Shown here piece after piece: positions 33,200 to 60,169 of a stretch of 64,000 bases of DNA. Origin of the DNA: an uncultured Parafilimonas sp. (lineage in GTDB: Bacteria; Bacteroidota; Bacteroidia; Chitinophagales; Chitinophagaceae); NCBI GenBank assembly GCA_937892395.1, contig CALAGJ010000111.1, positions 2,039 through 66,038 on the forward strand. The letters run 5' to 3'. Under the pieces are notes generated by a model that saw only the letters and a program-made list of their open reading frames with translations, was not told where the DNA came from and searched no databases. How positions within the stretch are numbered: position 1 is the first letter of the stretch; every line of letters starts with the position of its first letter. Both the position numbers and the translations under genes were made by a program.

Positions 33200-33226
33200 C
33201 AGCAAAAGGGTACAATTTCAGCTATA

Positions 33227-33234
33227 TACATTTG
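33227..33234 (+). promoter_or_regulatory. -7 box TACATTTG for the PPC-repeat gene
   Basis: TAnnTTTG match 27 nt upstream of ATG 33262 and 27 nt downstream of the third direct repeat. Confidence 0.45.
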
Positions 33235-33261
33235 AATTTGATAACAATAAAATCTGTAATT

Positions 33262-36200: not shown

Positions 36201-36411
36201 CATTCAATATGCAGGAAAAATAAAAGGAAAAATAGCTTGGACACTTACAGATGTAAATGGCCGTGTAGTACTTTCAAATATGGTAGATGCGGTACAAATC
36301 AGTAGTACCCGCATTTATGTAAACGCATTAGCCAAGGGCATTTATCAATTACAGCTTCGGGGAGCAGATGGAATGATAATAGCCACAGAAAAAGTTATCG
36401 TACAGCGATAG
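33262..36411 (+). CDS. giant exported protein: 6 tandem PPC (pre-peptidase C-terminal)-like domains + Cys-containing Ig-like module + Fn3 + T9SS type-A CTD
   Basis: Signal peptide MRKHLLSLLLLIIVSSSTARA. Six ~122-aa units each carry EPN(D/N)T..A, D.(L/A)DW(Y/F)K, YTGNSG.C.YFQLFDNN, FNCGS and GTYYVRIRP...YTL. These are followed by an Fn3-like segment (TSTQARLNFSN...TTYQWRV) and the CTD (VYPNPATQFFSI...VIVQR). The ORF-track start at 33106 overlaps the divergent kinase gene and is rejected. Confidence 0.85.
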   Translation: MRKHLLSLLLLIIVSSSTARAAESEPNDTWNTADVLTAGVAQTGTITTSSDIDWFKLRINQDGQINFSGGATTTGCLTFQLFDTLGTIAVNGTIFNCGGISNQSTNGLAAGTFYLKIISSDNNVNYSFTLTLTAATPAIDTEPNNTFSTAITQALNGSNTGHLGYYFNNKRDSIDWYKIVTTANGALKLSYTGNSGNCVYFQLFDNNGTTALNAEVFNCGSTNNQTTDGLAPGTYYVRIRQGSGNEFVTYTLSNSFIAPPVNTDAEPNSTRATAKVIPLNGSVNGHIGYRSNGGLRDTLDWWKFTTNVAGKVQIFYTGNSGDCAYFQLFDNNATTALSNEAFNCGSSNSLSVDGLNPGTYYVRVRPQNNTTSFATYTLKDTLILPPVSTDPESNNTAVQAATIAQNGSVNGQIGYYYNGIRDTLDWYKLTTNAAGAVKVFYTGLSGSCAYFQMFDNNTTTAVSNEAFNCGSTNSFTVDGLNPGTYFIRIRPGDNTSQYATYTLKDTLILPLVAPDVEPNNQPSLAVTKLVNSTVTGQVGYYYNGVRDTADWYKINLPSSGGLQLQYTGNSGGCAYFQLFDTVINGILAPRNNEVFNCGSTSTQNTDGLANGTYYVRIRPGTLGSDIPSYTLKDTLITLPPDNDNKPNDRPFQGQTLPANNTVTGNIGYSFNAMRDSADWARINYTGSGNLNLQFSSLSRAFAGPTCLYIKVYSDTNVAPINTTFNCGSTSNINLSGLTQGYYYVKVETSNPSVDFGQYSLSNSFAEVNKASITLVSSTQPTDCNPTGVLRVQCSGSKAPYTLRLFRFGVLDRVVRINNTSPTNITGLSNGIWTGRVFGDGASDTAFGVLAAAILMPVPTSLSTTNITSTQARLNFSNFTPCIDGYGIQYRKLGDIPWILDTARQSPFTLRGLTSATTYQWRVASADTANGQTAVSAFSAIAQFTTAGSLMVANDRSETENEQTVAGSIQVYPNPATQFFSIQYAGKIKGKIAWTLTDVNGRVVLSNMVDAVQISSTRIYVNALAKGIYQLQLRGADGMIIATEKVIVQR
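33328..35553 (+). repeat. intragenic tandem repeat: six ~366-bp units encoding the PPC-like domains
   Basis: Unit boundaries fall at ESEPND, DTEPNN, DAEPNS, DPESNN, DVEPNN and DNKPND. Units 2-5 are also clearly similar at the DNA level (for example TATTT(T/C)CAATTGTT(C/T)GACAACAATG...). Confidence 0.8.
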
Positions 36412-38359: not shown

Positions 38360-39694
38360 TTACTCTACCACCAATACCTGCTCTTTATTTTTTAATGTAA
38401 AACTACGCAGGAGTGAGCGTATCACTTCATTGTCAGGATAGGGTGTGAGGTGTGGTTTTATTTTTTTAATATGCCGTAAAGGTAAATTTTTTGGGACTAC
38501 CCCAAACCCATAAAAAGTACCGTTTTCTACTAACACACAGGTTTTGGTTTTTCCAATTACACTATCTTCTACTATGATGTAAGAGCCCGATGCTTGAGCT
38601 AAATCTTCAATAGCCCTTTTTACATTTTCATTATAACCGGGCACATCTAATAGATCTGGATAGCTGCCTCTGCTTTTTTCGAGAAAACACAACATAGCAT
38701 CCAACTCATACTGCCGCACTAACTTCCACATTTGTCTATGTGCATCTGTAAGCAGTGTGAATGTGGCCAAGGGTGTACTATTTTTTCGCTTGCGGTCTAT
38801 GCCTAATCTGATAACTCCTTTTGCATCTTCAAATGCATATATACCATATAAATTACTGTAGTGTTTTTGGCTTTTGTTGTGTAAGGGCCAATACTTTTTT
38901 ATTTCTACACTTTCGAGTATTAATGCTGTAAACTCTGTGGGGCAAACTTGGCAACTTACTGAATAAATATTGCGTAGCAACTCCTGTCTTTTTTTTCCTG
39001 TATTGAGGCCCATAAAATGACTGAGTACCCGCTTCCTGATATTCTTTGCCTTGCCTACATAAATGATTTTATCTTTTTTGTCTTTGAAATAATATACACC
39101 GGGATGTAAAGAAAGTCTTTTAACCTGCTCCGATGGAAGATTTGGTGGCAGCAGCTGGTCGTGATCATTTTTTTTGAGGAATTCTTTTATCTGTTTTTCA
39201 CCACCGGATTGAATGATGATTTCTAACAATCTTGCCGTAGCTTTTGCATCGCCTCCTGCACGATGGCGGGCTTCATTTTCAATATGGAAATGATTGGTAA
39301 GTGCACCTAAGCCATACTTAGGCAATCCGGGAAAAAGTTTGCGACTGAGGCGCAGGGTGCACAACTTTTTTGGCTGCCAATGGTATCCTTCCTCTTGTAG
39401 ATAATGCTTGATGAAGGTGTAATCAAAATTTACATTGTGGGCTACAAAAATTCTCTGGTGCATCAGGTTATATATATGCTCCGCCACATCTGAAAAAACT
39501 GGGGCTGTAGCCACCATAGCATTGCTGATGCCAGTAAGATGAACAATAAATGAAGGGATGGATTCCTTTGGATTGATCAACGTTTGATAAAAGCCCTCTT
39601 GCTCAGTGCCATTGTGCAGTACAATGGCAATTTCCAAAATGCCGGACCCTGCTGGATAGCTTCCCGTAGTTTCTATATCGACAATGGCATACAT
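38360..39694 (-). CDS. DnaQ-like 3'-5' exonuclease fused to a GIY-YIG (UvrC N-terminal-like) nuclease domain
   Basis: Has the ExoI motif MYAIVDIETTG, ExoII VAHNVNFDY and ExoIII HRAGGDAKA. These are followed by GVYYFKDKKDKIIYVGKAKNIRKRVLSHF (GIY-YIG). Confidence 0.82.
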   Translation of the reverse strand: MYAIVDIETTGSYPAGSGILEIAIVLHNGTEQEGFYQTLINPKESIPSFIVHLTGISNAMVATAPVFSDVAEHIYNLMHQRIFVAHNVNFDYTFIKHYLQEEGYHWQPKKLCTLRLSRKLFPGLPKYGLGALTNHFHIENEARHRAGGDAKATARLLEIIIQSGGEKQIKEFLKKNDHDQLLPPNLPSEQVKRLSLHPGVYYFKDKKDKIIYVGKAKNIRKRVLSHFMGLNTGKKRQELLRNIYSVSCQVCPTEFTALILESVEIKKYWPLHNKSQKHYSNLYGIYAFEDAKGVIRLGIDRKRKNSTPLATFTLLTDAHRQMWKLVRQYELDAMLCFLEKSRGSYPDLLDVPGYNENVKRAIEDLAQASGSYIIVEDSVIGKTKTCVLVENGTFYGFGVVPKNLPLRHIKKIKPHLTPYPDNEVIRSLLRSFTLKNKEQVLVVE

Positions 39695-40167: not shown

Positions 40168-40241
40168 GGTATTTGTTATTTTGTTGATGGCCTAAATAAT
40201 GGTATCTATTTTCTTGCTCAATGGGGTTCTTTATTTCAGCT

Positions 40242-40249
40242 TACATTTG
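40242..40249 (+). promoter_or_regulatory. -7 box TACATTTG 4 nt from ATG 40254 (leaderless-mRNA candidate)
   Basis: Perfect TAnnTTTG. It lies inside the ORF-track extension (40221), which argues for the 40254 start. Confidence 0.4.
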
Positions 40250-40253
40250 CCGG

Positions 40254-41255
40254 ATGTTTGGTTTGGGAATTGCTTATCATCGGGTAAAAAAAATACTCAT
40301 ACCGCAGGAGCGGATAAAGTTTTGGCTGCTGGTTGTACTGCATGTTGTCATGAATATTTTAGATATTGTAGCTCTAGCTGCTGTTATTTATATCATTAAT
40401 ATTTACACAAGGGAAAAGCCTATTTTGAGAAAGGATCTTATACCGGATTGGCTGCTCCATAGAAATATTTTAACCCCATTTCTTTTGTTGGTTGTTTTTT
40501 TTATTGTTAAAAGTGTTGCCGGTTTTTTGATCCTTCGTTTTCAAAATAAATACCTGTACGGTGTAGCTACTCGGCTGAGTATGGAGCGTTATCAATTCAT
40601 TGTACAAGATGCGAAAAAGAATGTACTTGAAGCAGCAGCTATAAGAGCTGTAAGTCAAGTGCCGGTGGAGTTTACAGAGCATGTATTGCTAAGTGTAAAA
40701 CAGGTGTTCTCAGAAATAATTTTGATTAGTATGGCAGGCGTAGCCCTTATGATTTTTAAGACAAAATTATTTTTACTGATTTTACTAATTGTACTTCCCG
40801 TTACTGTTATTATTTATTTTTCTACTACCAGGTTGTTGAAGAGATTGCGCAGCAGCATACAGCAAAATAGCTTAAAAACGATACAATATATACAGCAGGC
40901 CATACAGCAAAAATCAGTAGAAGAAAATGATACAATAGCAGAAGCATATTTGCAGAGCCAGCAATCGCTCAATATGAGTAGGGCCACATTTCATACTTTG
41001 CAAGCATTGCCCAATCGTTTTTTTGATGCAGCATTAGTGGCCTCCTTATTTTTATTGGTATTTCTCACCAAGCAGTTGGAGCATATTAGGTATATTGATG
41101 TAGTTACGATAGGTTCTTTTATGGCGGCAGCGGCCAAAGTAATACCCGGCATAATCAGGCTTATTAATCTCAATGCAGAAATACAATCTTATGCTTATAC
41201 AATTGATGTGCTTCAGGATGGTACTACTGATGAAGATACACATGTGGATGGGTAA
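40254..41255 (+). CDS. ABC exporter transmembrane domain only (ATPase domain lost; probable truncated gene)
   Basis: Has a six-helix ABC_membrane-like topology. The N-terminus ...KKILIPQERIKFWLLVVLHVVMNILDIVALAAVIYII is typical of type-I exporters. It ends at TAA 41253-41255, exactly where the nucleotide-binding domain should begin. Confidence 0.6.
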   Translation: MFGLGIAYHRVKKILIPQERIKFWLLVVLHVVMNILDIVALAAVIYIINIYTREKPILRKDLIPDWLLHRNILTPFLLLVVFFIVKSVAGFLILRFQNKYLYGVATRLSMERYQFIVQDAKKNVLEAAAIRAVSQVPVEFTEHVLLSVKQVFSEIILISMAGVALMIFKTKLFLLILLIVLPVTVIIYFSTTRLLKRLRSSIQQNSLKTIQYIQQAIQQKSVEENDTIAEAYLQSQQSLNMSRATFHTLQALPNRFFDAALVASLFLLVFLTKQLEHIRYIDVVTIGSFMAAAAKVIPGIIRLINLNAEIQSYAYTIDVLQDGTTDEDTHVDG

Positions 41256-41622: not shown

Positions 41623-44600
41623 CTACTCCACTATCAATTTTTTTATAGAGGCCGCTTTACCATCCACCTGCACATATACCAAATACAGGCCTTTGGCAAA
41701 TCGGCTAAGGTCAATAGGGATTTTTTGGCCTGCGGCAATGTTGGATAGGGCTTGGTTATACACGGTTTTGCCTGTTATATCCCTTATGTTAATACCCATT
41801 TTTGCCGCCGATTGATCCATACGGATGGAGGTATGGTTTGTGGCGGGGTTGGGATATAACTGCCAATTTGGGTCTGAGGATTTTGCACTAATAGGCTCAG
41901 GCCCCCCACCATTATTATTGGAACTACTTATTTCCATCTTTATGCAAGGTTTACCGCCCCATGTTGTACAAGGAGTAATTAGACAGGCTGTGCTAAATGG
42001 CAGGACGGTAATATTTTCTTCGGCAAAGGGATCACTGTTTGCTGCACTGCCCGGGGCAGGGTATGCATAATAGCTTCTTGTATCTGCACTGTTGTCCGTA
42101 AAATAATCCGGCTTGTTGCCGATAAACACTTCTACCATCGCTACCTGTATGGTTGTGTTGGTGTCTGGCGCAACGGAGGTGTTGCTGATGATAATATCCC
42201 AGGGGCTGCTATTGGGCGCAGGTGCCCAGTAGCAGGTGCTGAATACTTGAGTAAACCAGCGCCTGCGGGCTGTGATATCTGTATTGGTGGTATCGTAGCG
42301 GTTTAACTCATCCCCCTTAATCTGACCGTTTGCTCCCAATAAGCCAAAAATGAACTTGCTGCCAGTGGTATCGAACCCCCCATTATACACACTGCTACCA
42401 AACCAGGTGATGGCTATATAGGTGGTGGTGTTTGGCAAATTGCGGATGCTGTCTTTCATTTCTGCGCTGAGTTTAATAAAAATGCTGTTTGCTTTCTGAT
42501 TAAATACGCTATTGGGATTGCCCGCCAAAGCGGTGCTTACTATACCCTTGCTAAAGCGGCCAAAGGGACTGAATTTGTCTATGATTTCTGTAGTGTCTTC
42601 TTTTGCTTTGCCGATGATATTGTAGTAGCCAATTTGTTTTATTTTATAATCTACAGAAGAACCTAATGTGTCCACTTCCTGCATGGTGAGTTTGGTGCTG
42701 CTGCCGCTCCTGATGATGGCTGCATCATTGTCCGTGGTTACAAACCAGCCCACATCATTTTTACCTGCGCCGTTCGTGTTGTACTGGTTGCCTGCACCGC
42801 CCTGTGCTATATCGGATACGGACTGCACGGTGTTTTGATTATAAATATTTGAGGCGCCCAGGTTTCTGTTGGTGGCTATTTTTTCACAATATTTTTCGCC
42901 ATTATAGTTGCCATTTGCCGTGCCGCCATCATTGGTGCTGTTTACTTTCTGCTTTTGGGTGTTATTGCCATTGTGCACTGAAAAATCTTCTGTGGCAAAG
43001 CGAATGGTATCTGCCGCATCTAAACCGTCTTTAAAAGCAAGATAACTGCCCGGGAAGCTTTTGGGTATATCATTGTTGGAATAATCATAATCCTTTACAT
43101 GCTGATTAAAGAAGGTGAATACCTTGCCATTGGCTGTGTCAATGAACTGTGTGCGTGCCTGGTCTACAAAAGTGATCATGTTGATGTATTGAATCCAGTA
43201 ATCCAATCCAAAATCAAGGGCGCTGGTGGATGTGGCAAAGAGGTGACGGGGCCGCTGGCGCAATACATTTATATCGTAAAAACCTCCGGGCTTATAATCG
43301 GTGTAATAATCGAGGTTGGTATTATTCCAGTCGCACTCATCCCGGTAGCGTATTACACCGCCATTGCTGCCCCGTGTGGATTTGGCGACGCTGTCCTTTA
43401 ACTGATCATATTTAAGCCTGCGGTACATATCCCGGTAATTCTTGCCAAAGTTCATATTGTACAGATGCCCGCCCTCTGGTGGCTTGCGCCAGCTTTGGTG
43501 CAGGTATTTCATAATGGAATCGGGGGTATTACTCCAACTGCTGCCATTGTAACTTCTGCCAAACCAGTTTCTGGTGAGGCGTTGTGTATTAGTGCAGCTA
43601 TTGGCGCTGCTGTCAAGCGCCTTAGTAGATACAGGCCAGAGAAAATAAGATTCTGATGAAGGTTTGGTAAAATCAACGGCTACCGTGCGGGGCAGGTTAT
43701 TAAGCCCGGGATTGTTGTCGGCTACTTTTTTGCCCCATACCTTGGTGCCATTGCCACCGTTGAGCAGCAGGTGCATATTGGGCAGGGGCCGGGTGGCATA
43801 GTTGGCGGTGCCCGCAGGGCCATTGAGCTTATATAATGCATTGGCAAGCCAGCCCCAGTGCTTACGGACAAATATGGGCCACTCGGTTTCTAAATCTATA
43901 TCATCGGACAGATCCATGTTTACATTTGTTGAGTCGGTGGGTGATTCTATAATTCTGCCATCACCATCCCAGGGGCGTAAATCGCCGGTGCTTCCTTCTC
44001 CCACTTGTATAAAGAGGAGCCTTTCTTTTATCTTTTTATTAGTGGCAATAGTTTCCCAGTTGTTGGCGACTGTGCCGCTGGTTTTGAGATTGCATAAATA
44101 GCTGATGATGCGGTAGAGAAAATTGCGATAGTAATATTCATATTTTGTTTCTGCTAAGTTATCGCTTGTATAGCCGAAGCGACCATAATCATCATCTTTA
44201 TAAACACTGTCGGAGGTTTGCGCAGAAGTGACACCGGGCATTTTTACATAATCGGGGTAGGCTCCGGGGTAATTGTTTAGATAACTGCCGCTCACTCTGC
44301 GGCCCTTGTCGAGGTAATCGGGGTAGTAGCGAACATTAGTGCCACTGCCTGTTTTAACTCGTTTAATGCCGGCCTCCTTTAACCAGTATGGCATTTCTGT
44401 GTTATCTGGTATTCCTATGGGCGCCCACTGACCGGTCCATATTTCTATACCATAGGCTTTTATATTATTTGTATTGACCACCGTCTTGATGGCATCGTAA
44501 AAATCTTTGTACCGGATCAGGTCATTACCACCTGAGTTGTAATTGGGCATGTCACCTTTGTCATTTTTATTGTACTGTAAATAATTCCAGGCAAACACAA

Positions 44601-44907
44601 CTATGGCCCCTTTAATATAATCCGGTTGAATAGTTTGCGCCATGTTGGTGAGGCCCTGGGGAGGATTGGAACTGCCGCTGTTGTTATAAACAGGAGCAAA
44701 AAAACTACTATCCGCATATTGGGCGGATGCACTGCCATTGGCAAACATAAGGGTGGATTCTGCAACACCGTTGGAGTCAATCTTGTATGGGAAAAATGCC
44801 CATACACCACGGGCTTCTAACTCAAGATTGGAAATGGGGGTGCTTTGTGTGTGAACCTGTGTGAGGAAGCATACTGTTAAGAACAGTAAAGAGATTTTTT
44901 TTAGCAT
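41623..44907 (-). CDS. large exported protein of unknown function with T9SS type-A CTD
   Basis: 1094 aa with signal peptide MLKKISLLFLTVCFLTQVHTQ. The C-terminus LYPNPATNHTSIRM...KKLIVE is a T9SS CTD. I could not assign the N-terminal ~900 aa to a family; they may be glycoside-hydrolase-like. Confidence 0.7.
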   Translation of the reverse strand: MLKKISLLFLTVCFLTQVHTQSTPISNLELEARGVWAFFPYKIDSNGVAESTLMFANGSASAQYADSSFFAPVYNNSGSSNPPQGLTNMAQTIQPDYIKGAIVVFAWNYLQYNKNDKGDMPNYNSGGNDLIRYKDFYDAIKTVVNTNNIKAYGIEIWTGQWAPIGIPDNTEMPYWLKEAGIKRVKTGSGTNVRYYPDYLDKGRRVSGSYLNNYPGAYPDYVKMPGVTSAQTSDSVYKDDDYGRFGYTSDNLAETKYEYYYRNFLYRIISYLCNLKTSGTVANNWETIATNKKIKERLLFIQVGEGSTGDLRPWDGDGRIIESPTDSTNVNMDLSDDIDLETEWPIFVRKHWGWLANALYKLNGPAGTANYATRPLPNMHLLLNGGNGTKVWGKKVADNNPGLNNLPRTVAVDFTKPSSESYFLWPVSTKALDSSANSCTNTQRLTRNWFGRSYNGSSWSNTPDSIMKYLHQSWRKPPEGGHLYNMNFGKNYRDMYRRLKYDQLKDSVAKSTRGSNGGVIRYRDECDWNNTNLDYYTDYKPGGFYDINVLRQRPRHLFATSTSALDFGLDYWIQYINMITFVDQARTQFIDTANGKVFTFFNQHVKDYDYSNNDIPKSFPGSYLAFKDGLDAADTIRFATEDFSVHNGNNTQKQKVNSTNDGGTANGNYNGEKYCEKIATNRNLGASNIYNQNTVQSVSDIAQGGAGNQYNTNGAGKNDVGWFVTTDNDAAIIRSGSSTKLTMQEVDTLGSSVDYKIKQIGYYNIIGKAKEDTTEIIDKFSPFGRFSKGIVSTALAGNPNSVFNQKANSIFIKLSAEMKDSIRNLPNTTTYIAITWFGSSVYNGGFDTTGSKFIFGLLGANGQIKGDELNRYDTTNTDITARRRWFTQVFSTCYWAPAPNSSPWDIIISNTSVAPDTNTTIQVAMVEVFIGNKPDYFTDNSADTRSYYAYPAPGSAANSDPFAEENITVLPFSTACLITPCTTWGGKPCIKMEISSSNNNGGGPEPISAKSSDPNWQLYPNPATNHTSIRMDQSAAKMGINIRDITGKTVYNQALSNIAAGQKIPIDLSRFAKGLYLVYVQVDGKAASIKKLIVE

Positions 44908-48462: not shown

Positions 48463-48624
48463 AGAGTTTTTTCACATGGTGTGCTAAAGTAAGAATTGGT
48501 TCAGTTCTTGCTCTTTTAATGAATACGATTATATGTAGTTTTCTTTTTTAAAAAATTAACTCACTATCTAAAAATAAAATTTCAATTTGTGAGTTATTAG
48601 ATTGTATTGATTAAATCCATAATT

Positions 48625-49509
48625 ATGAAAAAGCATCAGTTGATACTTTCTGTTTGTTTTGTTGTTTTATTTTCTTCTTGTATCAAAGAATTAATTGAAG
48701 AAGAATTGAAGCCTACCATTGAAGACAATATACGATTTCAAAGAGAAAATTCCTTATTTGGTTTTGATGTGAATACATCAGACTGTAGAGTAGATCAATC
48801 CATAGAGAATACTGTTGACAGTTCTTTTTTTACCTATTATATGGCTGGCGGCCTCAAGCAGGTTTTAGTAGGAAAAGAAGGAAGCAAAGTAGAGTATGCA
48901 TATGATATAGATGGAAGGCTGCAGGTGGTACTCAGCTATGATGATGAGTCAAACGTAAAAAAAATGGAATTCTTTTATACTACTGATAAAAAACGTATGC
49001 GCAGAGTACTCATTTCTTCTTTTGGCTCCACATCTGGTGGAGGAATTGATACCATTTATGCCGAGTATCCTCTTAATACAAATAAGTTTATCCTATACTC
49101 TACAAAAATTAAAGAAGGAAAGAACAATGCAACTTCTGTATGTTATTTTGATGCAGATGGAAATATCAAAACAATTGAAAGAGGATTCAGAGATCCTGAT
49201 ACAAAAATTGTAGATGTGCGTACCACAGAAACATTTGAATACAATACTGCTATCATTAATCCATATTTTAATAATGTACATGCAGACTATCTTGCACTAA
49301 TGGCTACAATGCCCACAGGAGATGAAACCAATAATGCCAACTATTTTTTATCAAGAAATGTAGCTGTATCGCATACCACGTCTGCTTCTTCAAGTGTTTT
49401 CAATTTATCGAATGAAGTACTAAATGCAGATGGCACTGCTGAACAGTTGGTATATGAAGATGAACTGAATCAGGAATTGATGCTTGATTTCGTACTTAGT
49501 TGCAGATAA
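48625..49509 (+). CDS. hypothetical lipoprotein
   Basis: MKKHQLILSVCFVVLFSSC is a lipoprotein signal. I recognised no family. ATG 48625 is preferred over TTG 48607. Confidence 0.6.
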   Translation: MKKHQLILSVCFVVLFSSCIKELIEEELKPTIEDNIRFQRENSLFGFDVNTSDCRVDQSIENTVDSSFFTYYMAGGLKQVLVGKEGSKVEYAYDIDGRLQVVLSYDDESNVKKMEFFYTTDKKRMRRVLISSFGSTSGGGIDTIYAEYPLNTNKFILYSTKIKEGKNNATSVCYFDADGNIKTIERGFRDPDTKIVDVRTTETFEYNTAIINPYFNNVHADYLALMATMPTGDETNNANYFLSRNVAVSHTTSASSSVFNLSNEVLNADGTAEQLVYEDELNQELMLDFVLSCR

Positions 49510-49593
49510 ATTGATTATAATCCACAAGTCTTTTATTCTTTTATAACTGAAAGGATCCTTTTTAACTTATCAATATGATAACTGCTATGAATA

Positions 49594-50298
49594 TTACCGA
49601 ATGGTAATATCCATGTAGTGCTCGGCGTCTTTATATTGCGAATTTTTTACATTTTGTTTCCTTTGTATCTGCTTCAAAGCGTATCCAATATTTACCAATG
49701 CGCCATTTTCTCCATATTGGAAATAAATCGGACAATCAATTTTAGATATATCGGTACCCTCAGTGCAATTAATATCATCTGGGTGAGGCATTTTGGGTAA
49801 ATTATTGGAGTTTAATGGAAGATACAGATTTGGGAACTGGTCTTTCCATTGATTTACTTTTTGAGTTAAAGATTCGGAAATTATTTTATTGTGAATTGCA
49901 TCAAAATATCCTTCAAATAGATATAAGGTTTGCGAAATGATGTAAAATTTGTATCTATCTCATATCAGGAATTTTTCAATTGCAAATAACTGATTTTCTT
50001 TAAAAGATTTCATTGGCGTAGAAATGGCATTTATAAATTTAATTTTTCCCTTATTTGAATGAGCCAATGACAGAGCAAGACTTCCACCTTCACTTGGCCC
50101 ATGTATTCCAATCTTAGTAATATCAACAAAATTTTGTGATAGCTACCTGTTGCATTTAATACTTGAACTTATATTTTGTAAAATATTGTAAGCATTAGCG
50201 TATGACAACTTAATATACTAACCCTTACATTTGTATGATTTACAAAAAGACAAGCGTTTCTTTGTTATAGAGTTAATCTTTGAGACAGAATAAGTAAA
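49594..50298 (-). pseudogene. decayed alpha/beta-hydrolase (dienelactone hydrolase / peptidase S9-like) gene
   Basis: A single - strand frame reads ...SYANAYNILQNISSSIKCNR*LSQNFVDITKIGIHGPSEGGSLALSLA...FLI*DRYKF...YKDAEHYMDITIR*. It has the nucleophile elbow G-x-S-x-G (HGPSEGG) and a C-terminal His. It is interrupted by in-frame stops at 50218-50220, 50143-50145 and 49960-49962, and the N-terminus is missing. Confidence 0.7.
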
Positions 50299-50801
50299 TC
50301 TTTATGCCGTTTTACATGAAAGCATTCCCAATTTACACTTTAGGAAGTCAAATAGAAATCTGTTTTGTGTAAAATAAATGGTGAATACTTTTTTTGCGGT
50401 GATACAATTAATTCTGAATCTTATGAGTTATTTTCAATTTCCACAGTTGGTGTCAAAATATTGGTAGAAAGAGACAAGTTTTTTTAAGTTCCTATTGGAA
50501 TACAATAAGGGTTGTCAATGGCAAATGTCTATATCCGGATTTCTATTCAGGCAATTTTTGCGTACCTAATTTGAAATTGCATTGAGCGTAGAGATTGGAG
50601 CCATGATTGATTTATTTTAAAACCATTCTGAACTCAAATTATATTTTCGATAGTTTCCCATATGGAGTCTTACTCGATTTAAATGCTTATGGTTTTACCG
50701 ATAGGTGTATTCTAGTATGAACACAAAAAACATAACGCCTCGAATAAGAATTAACCAGAAAAATGAATATGTGCAGAATTTGTAAAATTTTTTGACTCTA
50801 A

Positions 50802-50831
50802 TAAAAAAAGGCTGCCCTTTTAAGACAGCCT
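50802..50831 (-). terminator. rho-independent terminator of the PPC-repeat paralog
   Basis: On the - strand, the hairpin AGGCTGTC-TTAAAAG-GGCAGCCT is followed by TTTTTTA. It begins 27 nt after the stop at 50858. Confidence 0.7.
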
Positions 50832-50857
50832 CTATTGATGATAGTAAATTCCTACAC

Positions 50858-53263
50858 TTACCTCGTTACAATAATTTTTGTATTACTTACCATACCAGCT
50901 GCATTAATCACTTGCAGGGTATATATTCCTACACTTAGCTTGCTTACATCCACCATCCGGTTGTTTAATGCAGATGAAGGCACTTGTGAAGCAGACCATA
51001 CCCATTTGCCGTAGGCATCCAAAAGCATTGCTGACAATTGTTCTTCCTTTGCTCCTTTGAGTACAATTCGAAAAACATTTACAGCAGGATTTGGAAATGC
51101 TGAAATGCTGATGTTACTTGACTTTGCCACAGCCATATCTGTGCTACTACCATAATTATTTGCTGCTATAGCCAATGAACTTGTGGTAGTAAACTGATCA
51201 ATAGCAGAGAAAGCACTTAATACATAGTTCGTGAATGTATCCACGCCAACACCTACTGCTACACGCCATTGGTAAGTAGTAGCAGCAAGCAGTCCTGAAA
51301 TGCGCAAACTATCCTTATTGCCCAATACTATTTTTTGAGACCAAGGTGTAGTACCGAGTTTGCGCCATTGTACTACATAGCCATTTGCACAACTCACACT
51401 GTTATACCTAACTGTAGCTGCTGTAGATTTGATATTTGTTTCTGATGTAGTTGTGGTGGCCGGTGGCAATAAGCTTTTTGTATTGCTTGTACCAAAAGCC
51501 GTACCTGTAGCTCCATCACCAAAGGCGGTGGCATAGTAAATACCCGGAGGTAGGTTACTGGCAGTAAATCCTGAGGTAAGGTTAGTCGTATAGGTTGCAT
51601 ATAAAGCTCCAAAGCGATACAATTTTACTGTATAAGGTGCACTGCTTCCACCACCTGTCATTTGAAGTTGTCCATTTGAACATCCATTGCTTGTAGCTGT
51701 GGTGATGGTGATATTTGCAATATTTACTTGCGTAAAAGTATTGCTGATACTATATGAGCTAAAATCAGTAAAATTGCCAGTGTAATAAGTAAATACCTTA
51801 ACATAATAATACCCTTGTGTAAGCGATGTTAGATTGATGTTTCCACTGGTACTATAGAAATAATTGGAATAGATTGGAGCAAGAGCTGTGTCTTTATACA
51901 CTTGCATCCATGTAGGAGGGGCAGATCCTATTTTTAATCGATTCTCCTGATTAAAATTAATTGTCATATTACCACTACCGGTATAGTTAATTTTGAAAAT
52001 ATCTACATTATCTCTTGACCCAGAACCATAAAAACTTATATGACCGGTTACAGAACCATTAGCAGGTATTGTTTTAGCTTGGCTGTACAATTCGTTGGGC
52101 TCAGCATCCCCAGCATTCGTATAAAAAGTACATGTATTTGAGAGTGTATAGGGGGCCCATTCAGAGGTATAATAAGTTCTAACCCTCACGTAGTAAGCAC
52201 CTTGCTTCAATCCATCAATATCCACCACAGTACCATTACCCGTGGTATAGCTACCAGTTATATAGGTAGAACCATCCGTATCAAATAATTCTGCCCACAC
52301 ATTTTGACCATTGCCTGATGCCATATTTAATTGCAATCTACCATCTGCTGTTGTTGTTATTTTATACCAATCTTCCCCATCCTTTTGATTGTTATAGTAA
52401 TAATTTACATGCCCCTGCTTGCTTCCATTTAAAGGAAGCGTGAGTGCCTGAGCTGCCGTACTATTTGGTTCTACATCATTTGATTCTGTGGCATAAAAAA
52501 CGCTATCAGACAATGTGTAGGGGGCCCATTCAGAGCCATAATAAGTTCTGACCCGCACATAGTATGTTCCTGCTGATAGGGCATCTTTATTGACTACAAA
52601 TGAAGTACCTGTTGTATAACTGCCTGCTAAAAGTGTTACCCCATCATTATCAAATAATTCTGCCCATACATTCTGACCATTTCCAGATGTCATAGTAAGG
52701 CGAATTCTGCCATCTGATGTTGTTGTTATTTTATACCAATCTGCACTATCTTTTTGGGTATTGTAATAATAGTTTATATGGCCAGTTTTTGTGGCATTGA
52801 CAGGTAATACTTTAGCTTGTGCTTTTGTTCCGTTTTGCTCCACATCATTTGCCTGTGTTGGTGAAGTGAGTGTATTAGAAATAGAATAGGCTCCTGTTTC
52901 TGTACCATAATATCCATTTACTCTGATATAATATGTACCCGCTGCAAGCCCATCTTTATTTAAGGTAAAAGTTGCAGTTGAGTAGGTTGAATTGAGCAGC
53001 GTAGTGCCATCATTATCAAAAAGATAAATCCACACATTTTGACCTGCTGGAGGTGTAAGTGAAATGCTAATTTTACCATCATTTGTGGTGATTAGCTTCC
53101 ACCAATCTTGATCACCGGCAGGGCTTAACGATCCATTATCGCTGCCATTCAACATTAGAGTATTTGCCGAATTTCGGTCATTGTTCGGTTCGGATTCTGC
53201 AAAGGCATATTGCCCGCATATCAAAACAGAAACAAAAAATAAGAGTAGGAATTTCTGTTGCAT
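50858..53263 (-). CDS. exported protein, paralog of 33262-36411: 4 tandem PPC-like domains + Cys-containing Ig-like module + Fn3 + T9SS type-A CTD
   Basis: Signal peptide MQQKFLLLFFVSVLICGQYAFA. Has four ~122-aa units (ESEPNN, DVEQNG, DVEPNS, DAEPNE). The last unit and the downstream modules are collinear with the other paralog (INYTGSGN, LTQGYYYVKV, SAPYT(V/L)(K/R)L(Y/F)RFG, TTYQWRVA). CTD: AFPNPAVNVFRI...KIIVTR. Confidence 0.85.
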   Translation of the reverse strand: MQQKFLLLFFVSVLICGQYAFAESEPNNDRNSANTLMLNGSDNGSLSPAGDQDWWKLITTNDGKISISLTPPAGQNVWIYLFDNDGTTLLNSTYSTATFTLNKDGLAAGTYYIRVNGYYGTETGAYSISNTLTSPTQANDVEQNGTKAQAKVLPVNATKTGHINYYYNTQKDSADWYKITTTSDGRIRLTMTSGNGQNVWAELFDNDGVTLLAGSYTTGTSFVVNKDALSAGTYYVRVRTYYGSEWAPYTLSDSVFYATESNDVEPNSTAAQALTLPLNGSKQGHVNYYYNNQKDGEDWYKITTTADGRLQLNMASGNGQNVWAELFDTDGSTYITGSYTTGNGTVVDIDGLKQGAYYVRVRTYYTSEWAPYTLSNTCTFYTNAGDAEPNELYSQAKTIPANGSVTGHISFYGSGSRDNVDIFKINYTGSGNMTINFNQENRLKIGSAPPTWMQVYKDTALAPIYSNYFYSTSGNINLTSLTQGYYYVKVFTYYTGNFTDFSSYSISNTFTQVNIANITITTATSNGCSNGQLQMTGGGSSAPYTVKLYRFGALYATYTTNLTSGFTASNLPPGIYYATAFGDGATGTAFGTSNTKSLLPPATTTTSETNIKSTAATVRYNSVSCANGYVVQWRKLGTTPWSQKIVLGNKDSLRISGLLAATTYQWRVAVGVGVDTFTNYVLSAFSAIDQFTTTSSLAIAANNYGSSTDMAVAKSSNISISAFPNPAVNVFRIVLKGAKEEQLSAMLLDAYGKWVWSASQVPSSALNNRMVDVSKLSVGIYTLQVINAAGMVSNTKIIVTR
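51734..53197 (-). repeat. intragenic tandem repeat: four ~366-bp units encoding PPC-like domains
   Basis: Units 2 and 3 retain long near-identical DNA stretches 369 nt apart (for example TAGGGGGCCCATTCAGAG at 52148-52165 and 52517-52534). Confidence 0.8.
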
Positions 53264-53311
53264 AATAAATAATTTTATACTGCAAAAGGAAGCCTTGTAA
53301 GAGCCTCAGGC

Positions 53312-53332
53312 AATAATCCATTTGGATAGTTT
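53312..53332 (-). promoter_or_regulatory. 21-nt element AAACTATCCAAATGGATTATT (as read on the - strand), 7-2-7 inverted heptamers; predicted NarL/LuxR-type operator, copy 1
   Basis: Identical to 55450-55470 when read toward the downstream gene. It lies 48 nt upstream of the ATG of the PPC-repeat paralog (53263, -). Confidence 0.6.
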
Positions 53333-53458
53333 TATCTCTTATCCTAAAAATGAACTTTAAAAAACTAAAACCAAAGATATCTGAGATTGTTGCTAAATTT
53401 GTGTTGGAAAGATTCGAACAGATTTTTAGCTTTTTCTTCACTAATCAGATCCCACCCA

Positions 53459-55420
53459 ATGAAAATAAAAATTGTTCTGCTTACGTTATTTTGTGCTGTG
53501 CAACTGGCTGCACAAACAACTATTACAGATAGTATTAGAAATGTAATTTTTTCGGGAAAAGATAAATCACAAAAACTATCAGCCATACTCGATTATTTGG
53601 ATCAATACCAAAGTCTAAATATAGACACCGTTTATAACTATGCACTTATAGCCATGGAAATGGCGGCTAAATCCAATGACGTTAGGAGCATGGCAAGAGC
53701 AGAACTCGCATTTGCAAATGCCTACGCTGTATGGGGCTGGGGCGATAGCGCACAGGCTGTATGTGATATGGCTTTAAAAAAATATGATGCCTCAAATGCT
53801 ATCACAAGAGATGTATATTTTAAACTATTGCGACAGAAAGCTTTGTGCTACGGAGGCGTACAAAAAAATCCGGAGGCCCTAAATATTTTGTACAAACTCT
53901 TAAATGAAACAAAGCAATACAAAGACTCCATTGCAACTGCCACCACATACAATACAATTGGTTCTGTATACTTAAATATGAGCAAACCGGATGAGGCATT
54001 GAAGTGGATCAATGCTGCATTAGTTTATGACACTAAGCATGAAAAATTTATTGCTGCTAAAGCTGCTGTTTATGTAAACTTGGCTTATTCTTATTTACTC
54101 AAAAATGATAATCAAGCAGCCAAAAAATTCATCGATAAGGCAGTACCCATTTGCCGACAGGCCCAAAATCTAAATACGCTTGCTACTGCACTCCGCATTA
54201 GTAGCATGATACTTGTAAATCTCAAAAATAATGATGCAGGAGAAGTGGATTTGAGAGAAATGGTAAAGATCAGACATGTATTAAGCAGTGGCTCCAATAT
54301 ATCTGAAGACAATCTTCAAATTGCCCATTTCTACGCCAACACAGGACAATTGAATAAAGCCATTGAGTATTGTAAGGAATGCTTAAAAAGTGGAAATGTG
54401 CAAAACAGTGCTGATACTACATCGTATTCAAATCATTTGAGTATAAAGCTGGATTATTATCAAGCACTTGCAGAATTTTATAAACAAGCTGGCAAGTCAA
54501 ATGAATACACAAATACACTTGAAGCAATCATCAATGCAAAAGATTCTTTTTATGCAGACAACAGTGCTCAAGCCATTGCAGAAATGCAGACCAAATATGA
54601 AACAGAACAAAAAGAAAAAACAATCATCCAACAGAAATATGACCTCACAAAAAAGAATGTACTGCTTTATGGTTCGGGTTTATTTTTCATACTGATTTCA
54701 ATCATCCTCTTCCAATTATTTAAATCCTATAAACGGAGGCAAAAAATAAAAATGGACATTGCGTTAGCAGAAGAGCATACTGCAAAACAGCTTGCCGTAA
54801 AAACGGCAGAAGAAAATGAACGCAAAAGAATAGCCGCAGACTTACATGATAATTTAGGTGTTCAGGCAAACGCAATTTTACACAATTCTGAACTATTGAA
54901 AAATGAATCATCTGAGCATGAAGACATTGTAGATGATTTGCACGACACGGCAAAACTCATGCTGCTCAACCTCAGAGAAACACTCTGGGCAATGAAATCA
55001 AATGACTTAGAAGCCGCAGAATTATGGCTTCGTGTCATCAGTTTTTCAAAACAAATGGGCAGACATTATGCGCAAATAAAATTTTCGATAACAGGCACTG
55101 CACCTGATCATTTTTTATTGCCTTCGGCAATGGCATTAAATATTGTAATGATTGTACAAGAAGCTGTGCACAATGCAGTCAAGCACAGTAATGCAGATAA
55201 AATTCAGCTCGCATCCAACATCGAAAATTTTTTGTGGAATATATCTGTGTCTGATAATGGCAAAGGATTTGACCTTGATACTGCCTTATCAAAAAAAAAT
55301 AGTTACGGATTAAAAAATATGATGGAGCGGGCAGCAACTTATGGACTGAAAATTGATTTCGACAAGAATGATACAACTGGGTCTATCATCAAAATTTATA
55401 TTCAAGAAAATAAAAAATAA
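53459..55420 (+). CDS. TPR-repeat sensor histidine kinase (HisKA_3 + HATPase_c, NarX/DesK-type)
   Basis: Has signal/TM MKIKIVLLTLFCAVQLAAQ, a ~370-aa TPR-like sensor region and a second TM (LLYGSGLFFILISIILFQLF). The H-box is ERKRIAADLHDNLG, and the ATPase shows QEAVHNAVKHS and DNGKGFD...GLKNMMERA. The start is set at ATG 53459. Confidence 0.88.
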   Translation: MKIKIVLLTLFCAVQLAAQTTITDSIRNVIFSGKDKSQKLSAILDYLDQYQSLNIDTVYNYALIAMEMAAKSNDVRSMARAELAFANAYAVWGWGDSAQAVCDMALKKYDASNAITRDVYFKLLRQKALCYGGVQKNPEALNILYKLLNETKQYKDSIATATTYNTIGSVYLNMSKPDEALKWINAALVYDTKHEKFIAAKAAVYVNLAYSYLLKNDNQAAKKFIDKAVPICRQAQNLNTLATALRISSMILVNLKNNDAGEVDLREMVKIRHVLSSGSNISEDNLQIAHFYANTGQLNKAIEYCKECLKSGNVQNSADTTSYSNHLSIKLDYYQALAEFYKQAGKSNEYTNTLEAIINAKDSFYADNSAQAIAEMQTKYETEQKEKTIIQQKYDLTKKNVLLYGSGLFFILISIILFQLFKSYKRRQKIKMDIALAEEHTAKQLAVKTAEENERKRIAADLHDNLGVQANAILHNSELLKNESSEHEDIVDDLHDTAKLMLLNLRETLWAMKSNDLEAAELWLRVISFSKQMGRHYAQIKFSITGTAPDHFLLPSAMALNIVMIVQEAVHNAVKHSNADKIQLASNIENFLWNISVSDNGKGFDLDTALSKKNSYGLKNMMERAATYGLKIDFDKNDTTGSIIKIYIQENKK

Positions 55421-55449
55421 GCTTTTAAAAAGTCAGTTTAAAATAACAT

Positions 55450-55470
55450 AAACTATCCAAATGGATTATT
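55450..55470 (+). promoter_or_regulatory. 21-nt element AAACTATCCAAATGGATTATT, copy 2 (predicted NarL/LuxR-type operator)
   Basis: Lies 44 nt upstream of the response-regulator ATG (55515) and about 20 nt upstream of a near-consensus -7 box, GATATTTG (55492-55499). Confidence 0.6.
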
Positions 55471-55514
55471 ATTCATAGTTTCACAATGTTTGATATTTGC
55501 TTTAAAATAAAAAT

Positions 55515-56180
55515 ATGATTCGTACTGCCATTGTAGATGATAAATTGAGCAACCGTACTGTATTAAAAGATAAAGTGAGTCGCAATTCATTTTTCAATAT
55601 TGTGTTGGAAGCTACAAACGGAAGCACTTTTTTAGACAGTATGAAAAAATTGTCGGAAGATGATTTGCCACATATAGTTTTAATGGATATCGAAATGCCG
55701 GAAATGGATGGAGTGGCTGCTATTGGTACGGCGTCGTCTTTATATCCTTCTGTAAAGTTTGTGGTGCTGAGCATTTTTGATGATGATGATAAAATATTCA
55801 GGGCCATAAAAGCAGGTGCATGTGGTTATATATTAAAGGAAGAAAGCGGTACCGTCATCTCAGAAATGCTCCTCAATTTATGGGAAAGTGGCGCAGGCCC
55901 CATATCGCCAAGCATTGCCTATAAAATTTTACAAATGGTTAAAAAACCATTAACCATAAAAGAAGAAAACATAGCGGCGCAAGAGGTATTTCATTTATCT
56001 GAAAGAGAAAGAGAAATATTACAACTGTTGAGTCAGGGTTTGGAGTATAAAGAAATTGGCAACAGTATATTCATTAGCCCAAATACGGTAAAAAAACATT
56101 GTATCAATATTTATCATAAACTACATGTAAATAGTAAGGCCCAGGCTTTGAGAATTGCATATACAAAGGGTTTGATATAA
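55515..56180 (+). CDS. two-component response regulator, NarL/FixJ (LuxR-type HTH) family
   Basis: Has a receiver domain (IRTAIVDD...IVLMDIEMPEMDG) and a C-terminal LuxR HTH (LSEREREILQLLSQGLEYKEIGNSIFISPNTVKKHCINIYHKL). Confidence 0.92.
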   Translation: MIRTAIVDDKLSNRTVLKDKVSRNSFFNIVLEATNGSTFLDSMKKLSEDDLPHIVLMDIEMPEMDGVAAIGTASSLYPSVKFVVLSIFDDDDKIFRAIKAGACGYILKEESGTVISEMLLNLWESGAGPISPSIAYKILQMVKKPLTIKEENIAAQEVFHLSEREREILQLLSQGLEYKEIGNSIFISPNTVKKHCINIYHKLHVNSKAQALRIAYTKGLI

Positions 56181-56207
56181 ATACTACATTCAGAATATAA
56201 TACCTGT

Positions 56208-56215
56208 TAGATTTG
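56208..56215 (+). promoter_or_regulatory. candidate -7 box (TAGATTTG) for the DoxX gene
   Basis: TAnnTTTG match 19 nt upstream of ATG 56235. Confidence 0.35.
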
Positions 56216-56234
56216 CGTCTTACTGCATGTAATC

Positions 56235-56612
56235 ATGAAAATACTTAAAATAATTTATTGGATGGTTACCGGTATCATGTGTGCTGTATTCCTATTTTCA
56301 GCAGGCATGTACCTTACAAAATATGACATGGTACAGGAGTTTTTTAGTCATTTAGGGTTTCCGATTTGGCTCATTTATCCTATGGCTATTTTAAAAATTT
56401 TGGGTGTAATTGCTATTGTTTCAAAGCTATCTAAATTTCTAAAAGAACTGGCATATTCAGGATTTTTGTTTAATGCGGTGTTGGCTTTATCAGCACATAT
56501 AATGGCTGGAGATAATGGATATCTGCTATCTATTATTGCATTGTTATCATTGATTCTGTCTTGGATATTAGATAGAAGAATTTCAAGGGCAAATGCTATG
56601 TCATTTTATTAG
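56235..56612 (+). CDS. DoxX-family membrane protein
   Basis: 125 aa with four TM helices. The pattern (KILGVIAIV...FLKELAYSGFLFNAVLALSAH) is typical of DoxX-like proteins. Confidence 0.7.
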   Translation: MKILKIIYWMVTGIMCAVFLFSAGMYLTKYDMVQEFFSHLGFPIWLIYPMAILKILGVIAIVSKLSKFLKELAYSGFLFNAVLALSAHIMAGDNGYLLSIIALLSLILSWILDRRISRANAMSFY

Positions 56613-58258: not shown

Positions 58259-60169
58259 ATGAAATATGTGTTGGCAGTTGGATTTTTGTTGCATTGCCTC
58301 AGTTTTCGGGCATCTACACAATGTGCTACACAGATAGTTGTTTCTAATACTACCCCCTATAAAGAGAGTTTTGAAAACAATAATGGCGGGTGGACATCTG
58401 GTGGTGTAAATGATGACTGGGCTTGGGGTACACCCAATAAAAAAGAAATAAAAACAGCTGGAGATGGCAGCAAATGTTGGATAACCGGAAGTCTTACCGG
58501 CAATAGATATAATGATGGTGAACAAAGTTGGTTGCAGAGCCCCTGCTTCAACTGCACAGCACTGCAATATCCATATATCAGTTTTAAAATTTTCTGGGAG
58601 AGTGAATTAGATTTTGATGGTATTCAACTGCAATATTCTGAAAATGGTGGCCTATCCTGGCTAAATTCCGGTGGCGTAAATGACCCTGTTGATTGCCTCA
58701 ATAAAAATTGGTACAATGCTGGAAATGTGGATTACCTCCGCAGGTTTACAGGCGATGGTAATGGATGGTGTGGAAATATACAAACCTCCGGCCCTTCCAA
58801 TTGTAGAAAAGGACAAGGCAGTGGTGGCTGGTTAGTGGCCGGAAAAACAATGCCGCTGCTCAAAGGAAAATCAAATATTCGATTTCGATTCATCTTTGCA
58901 TCTGGTACACAATGTAATAATTTTGATGGTGCTGCCATCGATTCTTTTACAATCAGCGAAGCAGTAAATACAATTGCCTACACCTATCAATGTGTAGATG
59001 TAACTCAGATAAATTTTTCAGCAATTGGCTGTGCCAATAATGGTGTATCATGGAATTTTGGAGATCCAAATTCAGGCATGGCCAACACATCATCACAACA
59101 AAATCCTACTCACCTATTTTCTGGGCCAGGAGAATATACCATTACACTTACAGCACCCGGCGGCAATGACAGACCAAATGCAATTGCAACCACACAATTT
59201 AAAGTTGCAATTGTTGATGCTACTGTTATCACACCCTTGCAATGCCCCGGGGATAGGAATGCTGTATTGCAGGCAAGTATTCAACCGGCATCATTATCCA
59301 CCGGATTTACCTATAGCTGGAACTCAAGCCCTGTGCAGCTTACCGCCACCGCTACTGCATTGCCGCCAGGCATATATACTGTTACAGCCACACCTCCACC
59401 AGATGGATGTGCATCAACGGCAACAGCAACAATTGCAGACATCCAACCCTTTCAAATTCTATCTCAAAAAGGAAATGATACCTGTGATAATAAGCTCGGT
59501 TTTATAAAAACGAATGTCTCTGGTGGTACAGCCCCTTATCTATATTCATGGTCAAACGGAGCAGTGGGTACAGATGAAATTAATTTGCTGCGCAATGATG
59601 ATTATACCCTTACTGTTGTAGATGATAATGGTTGCATTACCACCTTCACAGAGCAGATTGAATCTATCAACCCTATAAACATTTTTCTGGGTAATGATAC
59701 AGTTATTTGCCCCGGAGATAGGATCATCCTTACACCAGGACTCGCATTTAATGCTTATCTCTGGCAGGATGGAAGCACCAATGATTCATTGTTTGTACAA
59801 TCAGCAGGTGACTACAACTTAACCATTGAAGATGCCTTGTATGGTTGTATTGCAAAAGATACTATTAAAATAGAAGAAGACTGTGGAGAGATTTATTTTC
59901 CATCTGCATTTACACCAAATGGCGACAATAAAAATGAGTTCTTTGGCGCTTTAGGAAATCTAAATGCATTACAGAATTTTAGCATGAAAATTTATGATAG
60001 ATGGGGTGCACTTGTTTTTGAATCAACAAACCCATTTATAAAATGGAATGGGTTAGCAAATAAGAATACTTTACCTGCCGGTGCCACAGCCTATACATGG
60101 TATGCAAGATTTGACTATAGAACACAAAAAAATATTTTTAGAAAAGGTACTATCTTAGTTTTATACTAA
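58259..60169 (+). CDS. exported multidomain protein (MAM/lectin-like N-domain, PKD domain, SprB-type repeats) with T9SS type-B (gliding-motility CHU_C) C-terminal domain
   Basis: Has a signal peptide. The PKD-like segment reads WNFGDPNSG...NPTHLFSGPGEYTITLT. SprB-type repeats read C.G..N..L and GGTAPYLYSWSNG. The C-terminus FPSAFTPNGDNKNEFF...IYDRWGALVFES...WNG matches the type-B sorting domain. Confidence 0.8.
   Translation: MKYVLAVGFLLHCLSFRASTQCATQIVVSNTTPYKESFENNNGGWTSGGVNDDWAWGTPNKKEIKTAGDGSKCWITGSLTGNRYNDGEQSWLQSPCFNCTALQYPYISFKIFWESELDFDGIQLQYSENGGLSWLNSGGVNDPVDCLNKNWYNAGNVDYLRRFTGDGNGWCGNIQTSGPSNCRKGQGSGGWLVAGKTMPLLKGKSNIRFRFIFASGTQCNNFDGAAIDSFTISEAVNTIAYTYQCVDVTQINFSAIGCANNGVSWNFGDPNSGMANTSSQQNPTHLFSGPGEYTITLTAPGGNDRPNAIATTQFKVAIVDATVITPLQCPGDRNAVLQASIQPASLSTGFTYSWNSSPVQLTATATALPPGIYTVTATPPPDGCASTATATIADIQPFQILSQKGNDTCDNKLGFIKTNVSGGTAPYLYSWSNGAVGTDEINLLRNDDYTLTVVDDNGCITTFTEQIESINPINIFLGNDTVICPGDRIILTPGLAFNAYLWQDGSTNDSLFVQSAGDYNLTIEDALYGCIAKDTIKIEEDCGEIYFPSAFTPNGDNKNEFFGALGNLNALQNFSMKIYDRWGALVFESTNPFIKWNGLANKNTLPAGATAYTWYARFDYRTQKNIFRKGTILVLY

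Follow-up and report, generated by a model that had tools for sequence, protein, structure and literature searches.

Dimeric helix–turn–helix (HTH) activators such as LuxR at the lux box, and activators at class II sites (CRP or FNR at −41.5), bind palindromes of ~20 bp that overlap or abut the −35-type element of a promoter, and contact RNA polymerase. GerE/NarL output domains bind as dimers to 7-2-7 sites, which consist of a pair of inverted heptamers spaced 2 bp apart (PMC4549865). At promoters activated by Escherichia coli NarL these sites lie upstream of the transcription start (napF, −40 to −49; yeaR, −38 to −47), whereas the 7-2-7 site from which NarL represses frdA lies at −4/+6; an engineered NarL site reads TACCCCTAAAGGGGTA (PMC4549865). 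Among the Bacteroidota, the FimS-FimR two-component system of Porphyromonas gingivalis combines a kinase that has a periplasmic tetratricopeptide-repeat (TPR) sensor with a regulator that activates genes of surface structures (PMC5706477). Here, we analysed a 21 nt element that occurs twice in a stretch of 64,000 nucleotides (the window) from an uncultured Parafilimonas sp. (contig CALAGJ010000111.1). The copies flank the gene of a sensor histidine kinase; one precedes the gene of a PPC-domain protein that is type IX secretion system (T9SS) cargo and the other the gene of a NarL/FixJ-family response regulator. In an earlier note on this DNA the element had been proposed as the operator through which the regulator controls its own gene and the cargo gene, and comparative evidence supports the proposal. 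The 21-mer is probably the operator of the adjacent regulator (55515–56180), joined to a Bacteroidota sigma-A core promoter and most likely activating both outward-facing promoters.

The likeness to the napF and yeaR operators of NarL comprises inverted heptamers 2 bp apart, a site near −43.5 (predicted here) and a GerE-type dimer of a phosphorylated NarL/FixJ regulator (proposed here). The differences are that the regulator is no orthologue of NarL (its score with the NCBIfam NarL equivalog NF007935 is 92.9 bits, the cut-off is 250, and no equivalog model is reached), that the kinase is a TPR sensor and not a NarX/NarQ nitrate sensor, that the promoter is of the Bacteroidota −33/−7 type and that the predicted targets are secreted or surface proteins and not respiratory genes. 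In layout the element resembles a NarL 7-2-7 operator of the class II type, yet judged by its sequence it is no NarL site. As at the lux box and at class II sites, the palindrome abuts the predicted −35-type element (here −33). Unlike LuxR, the regulator is controlled by phosphorylation and not by ligand binding, its site has 7-2-7 spacing and the promoter belongs to the Bacteroidota. The kinase weakly matches the FimS model across its whole architecture (residues 121–604), but with 42.8 bits against a cut-off of 600 (NF053520) it is not an orthologue; the targets of FimR are fimbriae, and no comparable operator for FimR is described in the text consulted (PMC5706477). Among cell-envelope regulators of the LiaR/VraR type, VraR is, together with NarL, the closest solved structure; both combine REC with GerE as the regulator does and pair with a HisKA_3 kinase. 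The identity is only ~30%, the sensor and operator sequence are different, and the locus shows no sign of a role in cell-envelope stress.

The two copies and their promoter context

Copy 2 reads AAACTATCCAAATGGATTATT on the plus strand (55450–55470) and begins 30 nt past the kinase stop codon. Copy 1 (53312–53332) is its exact reverse complement, which reads AAACTATCCAAATGGATTATT on the minus strand, and lies in the divergent region that separates the cargo gene from the kinase gene. The order along the locus is cargo gene (−), operator, kinase gene (+), operator and regulator gene (+); the kinase gene is thus enclosed by the two copies as an inverted repeat, 2,117 bp apart and with an asymmetric AA/TT centre. 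The kinase gene (53459–55420) was absent from the earlier note, in which the identity of the two 21-mers and their spacing from the start codons (48 nt to the ATG at 53263 on the minus strand and 44 nt to the ATG at 55515 on the plus strand) were correctly given. The repeat is exactly 21 nt long at 100% identity and does not extend further. With up to three mismatches allowed, the two copies are the sole matches in the window; the next best match has five mismatches and is intragenic. Searches of the window with the pattern TCCANNTGGA, with mismatch scans and with a 22-mer consensus revealed no further convincing site. In 100 dinucleotide-preserving shuffles of the window no 21-mer match arose, which bears out the view that the pair is unlikely to be due to chance.

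The core of the element is CTATCCA-AA-TGGATTA, and its two inverted heptamers with 2 bp between them have the NarL-type 7-2-7 layout that had been claimed. The full symmetry of the heptamers did not stand: the left arm, CTATCCA, and the reverse-complemented right arm, TAATCCA (from TGGATTA), are identical at five of seven positions, and only ATCCA-AA-TGGAT is a perfect palindrome. Similarly, the claimed likeness to NarL sites held for geometry and position but not for the E. coli NarL heptamer consensus TACYYMT, which CTATCCA and TAATCCA match at only 3/7 and 5/7 positions. A common variant, TACTCCA (in sites with GGAGTAT), matches it at 6/7, and the outer TA and inner pyrimidine-rich half-site of the element (TA-TCCA) loosely recall it. 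Sites bound by this regulator would be CTATCCAAATGGATTAT-like.

For analysis of the promoter context, 32 non-redundant sites with no more than two mismatches to a 17-mer were used; no ascertainment bias affects positions beyond the 17-mer by which the sites were selected. Copy 1 equals the 22 nt consensus AAACTATCCAAATGGATTATTG, which is backed by these 32 related sites. An A-tract lies directly 5′ of the element, and TTG follows directly 3′ of it in 23/32 sites. The score for TAnnTTTG peaks at nt 23–30 past the 17-mer (mean of 4.44/6, against ~1.7 at other offsets). The flavobacterial sigma-A −7 box spans −12 to −5 (PMC9723704); with the peak placed there, the TTG takes the place of the −33 box and the palindrome is centred near −43.5. 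At both copies the Bacteroidota sigma-A layout was found (−7 TAnnTTTG and −33 TTG with about 19–21 nt between them). At copy 1 the −33 box TTG (53313–53311, minus strand) is completed by the G at 53311, and the predicted −7 box of the cargo gene, TCCTTTTG (53283–53290, minus strand), agrees with TAnnTTTG at 5/6 positions and predicts a transcription start near 53278. At copy 2 the −33 position reads TTA and not TTG, and the predicted −7 box of the regulator gene, GATATTTG (55492–55499, plus strand), also agrees at 5/6 positions, with a predicted start near 55504. The −33 to −7 spacing is 20 nt at both copies, and both −7 boxes lie at nt 23–30 past the 17-mer, as does the family-wide peak. The register between operator and core promoter is fixed within about 1 bp across orders and paralogues.

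This context accounts for several properties of the pair. The identity of the two copies reflects their agreement with the strongly conserved family consensus and not a recent duplication; outside the palindrome it is owing to the A-tract that lies 5′ and the −33 TTG that lies 3′, and each copy reads alike towards its gene because these flanks are asymmetric. The kinase gene has a candidate −7 box of its own, TAAATTTG (53394–53401, plus strand), which is a perfect TAnnTTTG situated 57 nt before the kinase ATG; a similar box, TAAGTTTG, precedes the kinase gene of the related locus L006 (related loci are designated by L and a number). Since the predicted start of the kinase gene is ~84 nt from the palindrome centre, its promoter is probably separate, operator-independent and constitutive. 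No intrinsic terminator was detected in the gap between the kinase and regulator genes, and read-through from the kinase promoter into the regulator gene could therefore occur.

Conservation and association with the regulator

Contigs of the same species from other samples contain the same locus. In L006, L010 and L011, the kinases of which are 79, 57 and 59% identical to that of the window, the element is kept at at least 20/21 positions at both places, whereas the surrounding intergenic DNA has otherwise diverged. By this comparison the element is a phylogenetic footprint. The cargo–kinase–regulator arrangement is demonstrably retained in L010 and L011. The conservation in orthologous promoters that would be expected of an operator was found at both positions: counterparts of copy 1 are kept in L006, L010, L011, L027 and L039, and counterparts of copy 2 are kept before the regulator gene in L006, L010, L011, L027, L021, L039, L040 and L045; the counterpart of copy 2 is degenerate in L028, L034 and L047. 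Some relatives have two tandem operators in the divergent region or an extra operator before the gene that follows the regulator gene (L021, positions 5037 and 5350; L034, 5497 and 5582; L040, 4891; L045, 4831; L069, 6680), and the local regulon therefore varies among genomes.

One genome per species was scanned for the 18-mer ACTATCCAAATGGATTAT (185,579 species; 596 Gb). Exact matches were found in 27 stretches, eight of them in unrelated phyla, roughly the number that chance would give for an 18-mer in this much DNA, and ~19 in Bacteroidota. No genome carried more than two exact copies, so that the genome-wide count, named in the earlier note as a check, speaks for the proposal. The carriers among the Bacteroidota are Mucilaginibacter, Pedobacter, Ferruginibacter, Niabella, Taibaiella, Leadbetterella, Segetibacter and others, including metagenome-assembled genomes. 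Eight of the Bacteroidota stretches have a regulator orthologue and/or a kinase homologue within a few kilobases; seven of these carry a regulator orthologue of 58–70% identity, and L030 has only a partial kinase match. Regulator orthologues and their kinases adjoin the 18-mer in Niabella, Taibaiella, Leadbetterella, Ferruginibacter, Mucilaginibacter and other metagenome-assembled Bacteroidota genomes. In these stretches the element lies upstream of the kinase gene, in the divergent region, and is aimed away from it. Taibaiella (L027) has two inverted copies flanking the kinase gene, as in the window, and in Mucilaginibacter-type loci the kinase and regulator genes form an operon with a single copy of the element.

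The link to the regulator was quantified using 80 metagenome loci that encode relatives of the regulator at 33–79% identity, fetched via an alignment of nine regulator orthologues. Loci with a regulator at least 58% identical were treated as orthologue loci (11) and the more distant ones as paralogue loci (69). The 17-mer was found with no more than two mismatches at 5/11 orthologue and 1/69 paralogue loci (Fisher p = 1e-4), and with no more than three mismatches at 7/11 and 2/69, respectively (Fisher p = 3e-6). Most of the orthologue loci that lack a match have no DNA upstream in the locus; the orthologue locus L044 has a diverged form, CTAATCCTTTTGGAGTATTC, aimed into the kinase–regulator operon. 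The element accompanies the regulator orthologues, and not the paralogues, in Chitinophagaceae, Mucilaginibacter and Leadbetterella.

The paralogous regulators (40–53% identity) have other recognition helices and 7-2-7-like palindromes of their own, which start 57–69 nt before the regulator ATG and abut the TTG −33 box (L054, L058, L060, L061–L065, L067–L069 and L072). Thus, ATGCTCCCGGGAGCGTATTG was found in L054, L058 and L060 (recognition helix PLTVRKH), TACGCGCAACCGCGTATTG in L069 (PNTVRTH), and TACTACAAAGTGAGTATTG and its relatives in L072, L068 and L064. The palindrome of L061, TAATCCAAAAGGGTTATTG, is closest to the orthologues' motif, and the regulator of this locus shares the NTVKKH helix of the orthologue group. 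The putative operators of paralogous systems differ, for example GCTCCCGGGAGC from ATCCAAATGGAT. In L072, L068 and L063 the palindrome of the locus recurs inverted 2.07–2.12 kb upstream, across the kinase gene; read from the sequences, this is the architecture of the window with a different sequence. These pairs are imperfect, with two to four differences over ~19–20 positions. If every regulator bound its own promoter, each paralogue would be expected to have a palindrome of its own at the same position, as is observed; this co-variation of operator and regulator is the strongest available argument that each regulator would bind both its own and the divergent promoter.

Exact copies of the element also precede genes that are not linked to the two-component system, namely M1-family peptidase genes in three genomes (L015, L018 and L036), an outer-membrane protein (OMP) β-barrel gene (L031 and L037) and the gene of a protein with an FHA domain and a transmembrane (TM) segment (L020, L021 and L027). 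The divergent targets elsewhere include PPC/T9SS cargo, β-lactamase-family hydrolases, an esterase and lipoproteins. The recurring unlinked genes are candidate members of a conserved regulon, most of the predicted targets of which are exported hydrolases or surface proteins. The operator is almost invariant over 20 bp, and the regulators are 58–90% identical across orders. It is quite possible, if somewhat doubtful, that Chitinophagia and Sphingobacteriia possess an expanded family of kinases and NarL-type regulators with private 7-2-7 operators at the −33 elements of two outward promoters, which would make up a natural collection of matched regulator–operator pairs, and that the member described here is a deeply conserved master activator of secreted hydrolases and T9SS/surface proteins. 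Its targets may include the PPC cargo protein, the M1 peptidase, β-lactamase-family hydrolases, the esterase and the OMP.

Proposed mode of action and alternative explanations

In the mechanism that we propose, the GerE-type domains of the phosphorylated regulator would bind CTATCCA-AA-TGGATTA as a dimer. The palindrome centre would lie ~43.5 bp upstream of the predicted start and abut the −33 TTG, as in a class-II-like site, and the regulator would activate the two promoters that are aimed away from the kinase gene. Activation of the promoter of its own gene would result in positive feedback, and the divergent PPC/T9SS cargo gene would be co-induced, with the kinase (53459–55420) produced from its own constitutive promoter. 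We infer binding by this regulator, and activation rather than repression, from the comparative evidence; activation is favoured because a register fixed to ~1 bp is what an activator that touches RNA polymerase needs.

Several points weigh against this explanation. The −43.5 position is derived from consensus boxes alone, and regulator binding, activation and the transcription starts are predictions. The heptamers depart from the E. coli NarL consensus to the extent given above. The recognition helix is no simple predictor of the motif: L052 and L062 share a helix yet differ in palindrome, and a simple recognition-helix-to-motif code was rejected on this ground. The −33 and −7 boxes are reasonably good, which is less typical of strictly activator-dependent promoters. 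Regulator genes of the Mucilaginibacter type, which lie in a kinase–regulator operon, have no operator of their own, so that autoregulation is not universal. Finally, the source genome was scanned for the element across the 64 kb window.

Repression by the same regulator is an unlikely alternative. Bound to the element, the regulator would block sigma-A and RNA polymerase at −33 and would thereby repress its own gene (negative autoregulation) as well as the cargo gene. The core promoter boxes are good enough to allow this, as the TTG in 23/32 sites together with a good −7 box might let the promoters fire without an activator, and NarL also represses from 7-2-7 sites, for example at frdA (PMC4549865). 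However, the frdA site lies at −4/+6 and not near −43, where the sites of napF and yeaR activate, and the fixed register across orders and paralogues is typical of activators, whereas repressors tolerate variable placement.

It is improbable that another conserved transcription factor binds the element and that the two-component genes are merely among its targets. Such a factor would be compatible with the motif preceding the unlinked M1 peptidase, OMP β-barrel and FHA genes, and binding by the regulator is itself deduced. Nevertheless, the motif tracks the regulator orthologues and is nearly confined to them among the 80 loci, each paralogue has its own palindrome at the same promoter position (three of them also at the divergent promoter), and a separate matched factor would be needed for each paralogue. 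The 7-2-7 geometry also suits GerE-type dimers, as expected for the regulator as the binding protein.

Serine-invertase sites (hix/gix) superficially resemble such inverted repeats, and the perfect 21 bp repeat with its 2,117 bp spacing and asymmetric AA/TT centre might be read as a pair of hix-like crossover sites, each with two half-sites about a 2 bp AA centre, at which a site-specific recombinase inverts the kinase gene. This explanation is very improbable and was rejected. No recombinase was found among the annotated genes that flank the locus, elsewhere in the window or in the related loci, and the kinase gene has the same orientation relative to the regulator gene in every independent contig. 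Furthermore, the element occurs only once in Mucilaginibacter-type loci and at unlinked promoters, the paired copies of paralogues differ at two to four of ~19–20 positions, and both copies in the window keep a fixed register to promoter boxes that face outward.

That the 21-mer is a dispersed repeat (REP/MITE-like), a fragment of a mobile element or a chance match unrelated to the locus is hardly credible and was rejected: the exact 18-mer does occur in 27 stretches, eight of them in unrelated phyla, but no window shuffle reproduced the match, none of the 185,579 species genomes has more than two exact copies (the source genome itself was scanned across the 64 kb window), the similarity is confined to the element between unrelated flanks, and in Bacteroidota the copies occupy promoters to which their register is conserved, many of them beside the same two-component system. 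A known RNA motif was also rejected, as Rfam gave no match in 52800–56300 at E ≤ 1 and none window-wide at gathering scores. A full-text literature search with a 12-mer on either strand returned only unrelated eukaryotic or primer sequences, and a keyword search found no paper on this two-component system or motif.

The proposed circuit is an ordinary autoregulated two-component circuit, and the element is an unusually well conserved one that belongs to an unstudied regulator. Few operators of transcription factors have been characterized in environmental Bacteroidota (Chitinophagaceae and Sphingobacteriaceae), the promoters of which are unlike those of the E. coli type. The element provides a precise candidate operator for a very widespread regulator and an initial set of its candidate targets, which comprises T9SS cargo, outer-membrane proteins and hydrolases that are secreted. 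The paralogous regulator–operator pairs, set in one fixed promoter architecture, could be used to derive rules of GerE-type recognition and to construct inducible promoters.

Proteins of the locus and other features of the window

The gene identities given in the earlier note (a PPC/T9SS cargo protein and a NarL-type regulator) agree with the Pfam assignments. The cargo gene (50858–53263, minus strand) encodes a protein of 801 aa that contains three PPC domains and, at its C-terminus, a T9SS sorting domain (PPC, 4.8e-20; Por_Secre_tail, 6.8e-22; also TIGR04183). The sensor histidine kinase (53459–55420, plus strand) has 653 aa with TPR, HisKA_3 and HATPase_c domains in Pfam. At its N-terminus a signal/TM segment is followed by the TPR repeats and another TM segment, after which come HisKA_3 and HATPase_c. 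Its matches to the NCBIfam models of NarQ, UhpB and FimS are all far below the cut-offs, and its homologues are found in genomes of Chitinophagaceae (Bacteroidota) and in metagenomes.

The NarL/FixJ-family response regulator (55515–56180, plus strand), the proposed binder of both operators, has 221 aa and comprises a REC domain (Response_reg, 1.5e-16) and a GerE HTH domain (2.3e-17, residues 161–215). The phospho-acceptor Asp and the acidic pocket are intact, with D8, D9, D58 and K108 invariant in the nine regulator orthologues, and the recognition helix NT(V/A)KKH is conserved in the orthologues. Its best sequence matches in the PDB are VraR (5hev; E = 1.9e-26) and NarL (1a04), with the GerE domain aligned end to end, and it adjoins the gene of a HisKA_3 partner kinase, as is characteristic of the NarL/FixJ class. 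The family comprises 3,444 proteins at E ≤ 1e-30, the top 120 of which are all at least 72% identical. The linker segment GAGPISP(S/G)(I/V)A(Y/H)KILQ at residues 126–140 (window positions 55890–55934) is invariant at 12/15 positions in the nine orthologues; the remainder of the linker is variable, and the GAGPISP segment is a signature of the orthologue group.

The window contains two more large T9SS cargo genes, at 33106–36411 (plus strand; PPC, fn3 and Por_Secre_tail) and 41623–44907 (minus strand; Por_Secre_tail). No operator was found upstream of either of these genes, so that not all PPC/T9SS paralogues seem to be controlled by the regulator. Downstream of the PPC gene, a region of ~1.3 kb (49510–50857) contains no open reading frame (ORF) longer than 65 aa and is without a match in Rfam; coding sequence that has decayed, or a non-coding region that is unannotated, may account for it. 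The ORFs at 40221–41255 and 48607–49509 have no Pfam match. The gene at 38360–39694 (minus strand) encodes a fusion of an RNase_T (DnaQ-like exonuclease) domain with a GIY-YIG nuclease domain. Beyond the regulator gene, DoxX, DUF6326 and DUF4386 genes are followed by the gene of a PKD/SprB-repeat protein with a CHU_C (type B) T9SS sorting domain (58259–60169, plus strand), and this DoxX–DUF6326–DUF4386–PKD order after the regulator gene is kept in L002 and L006.

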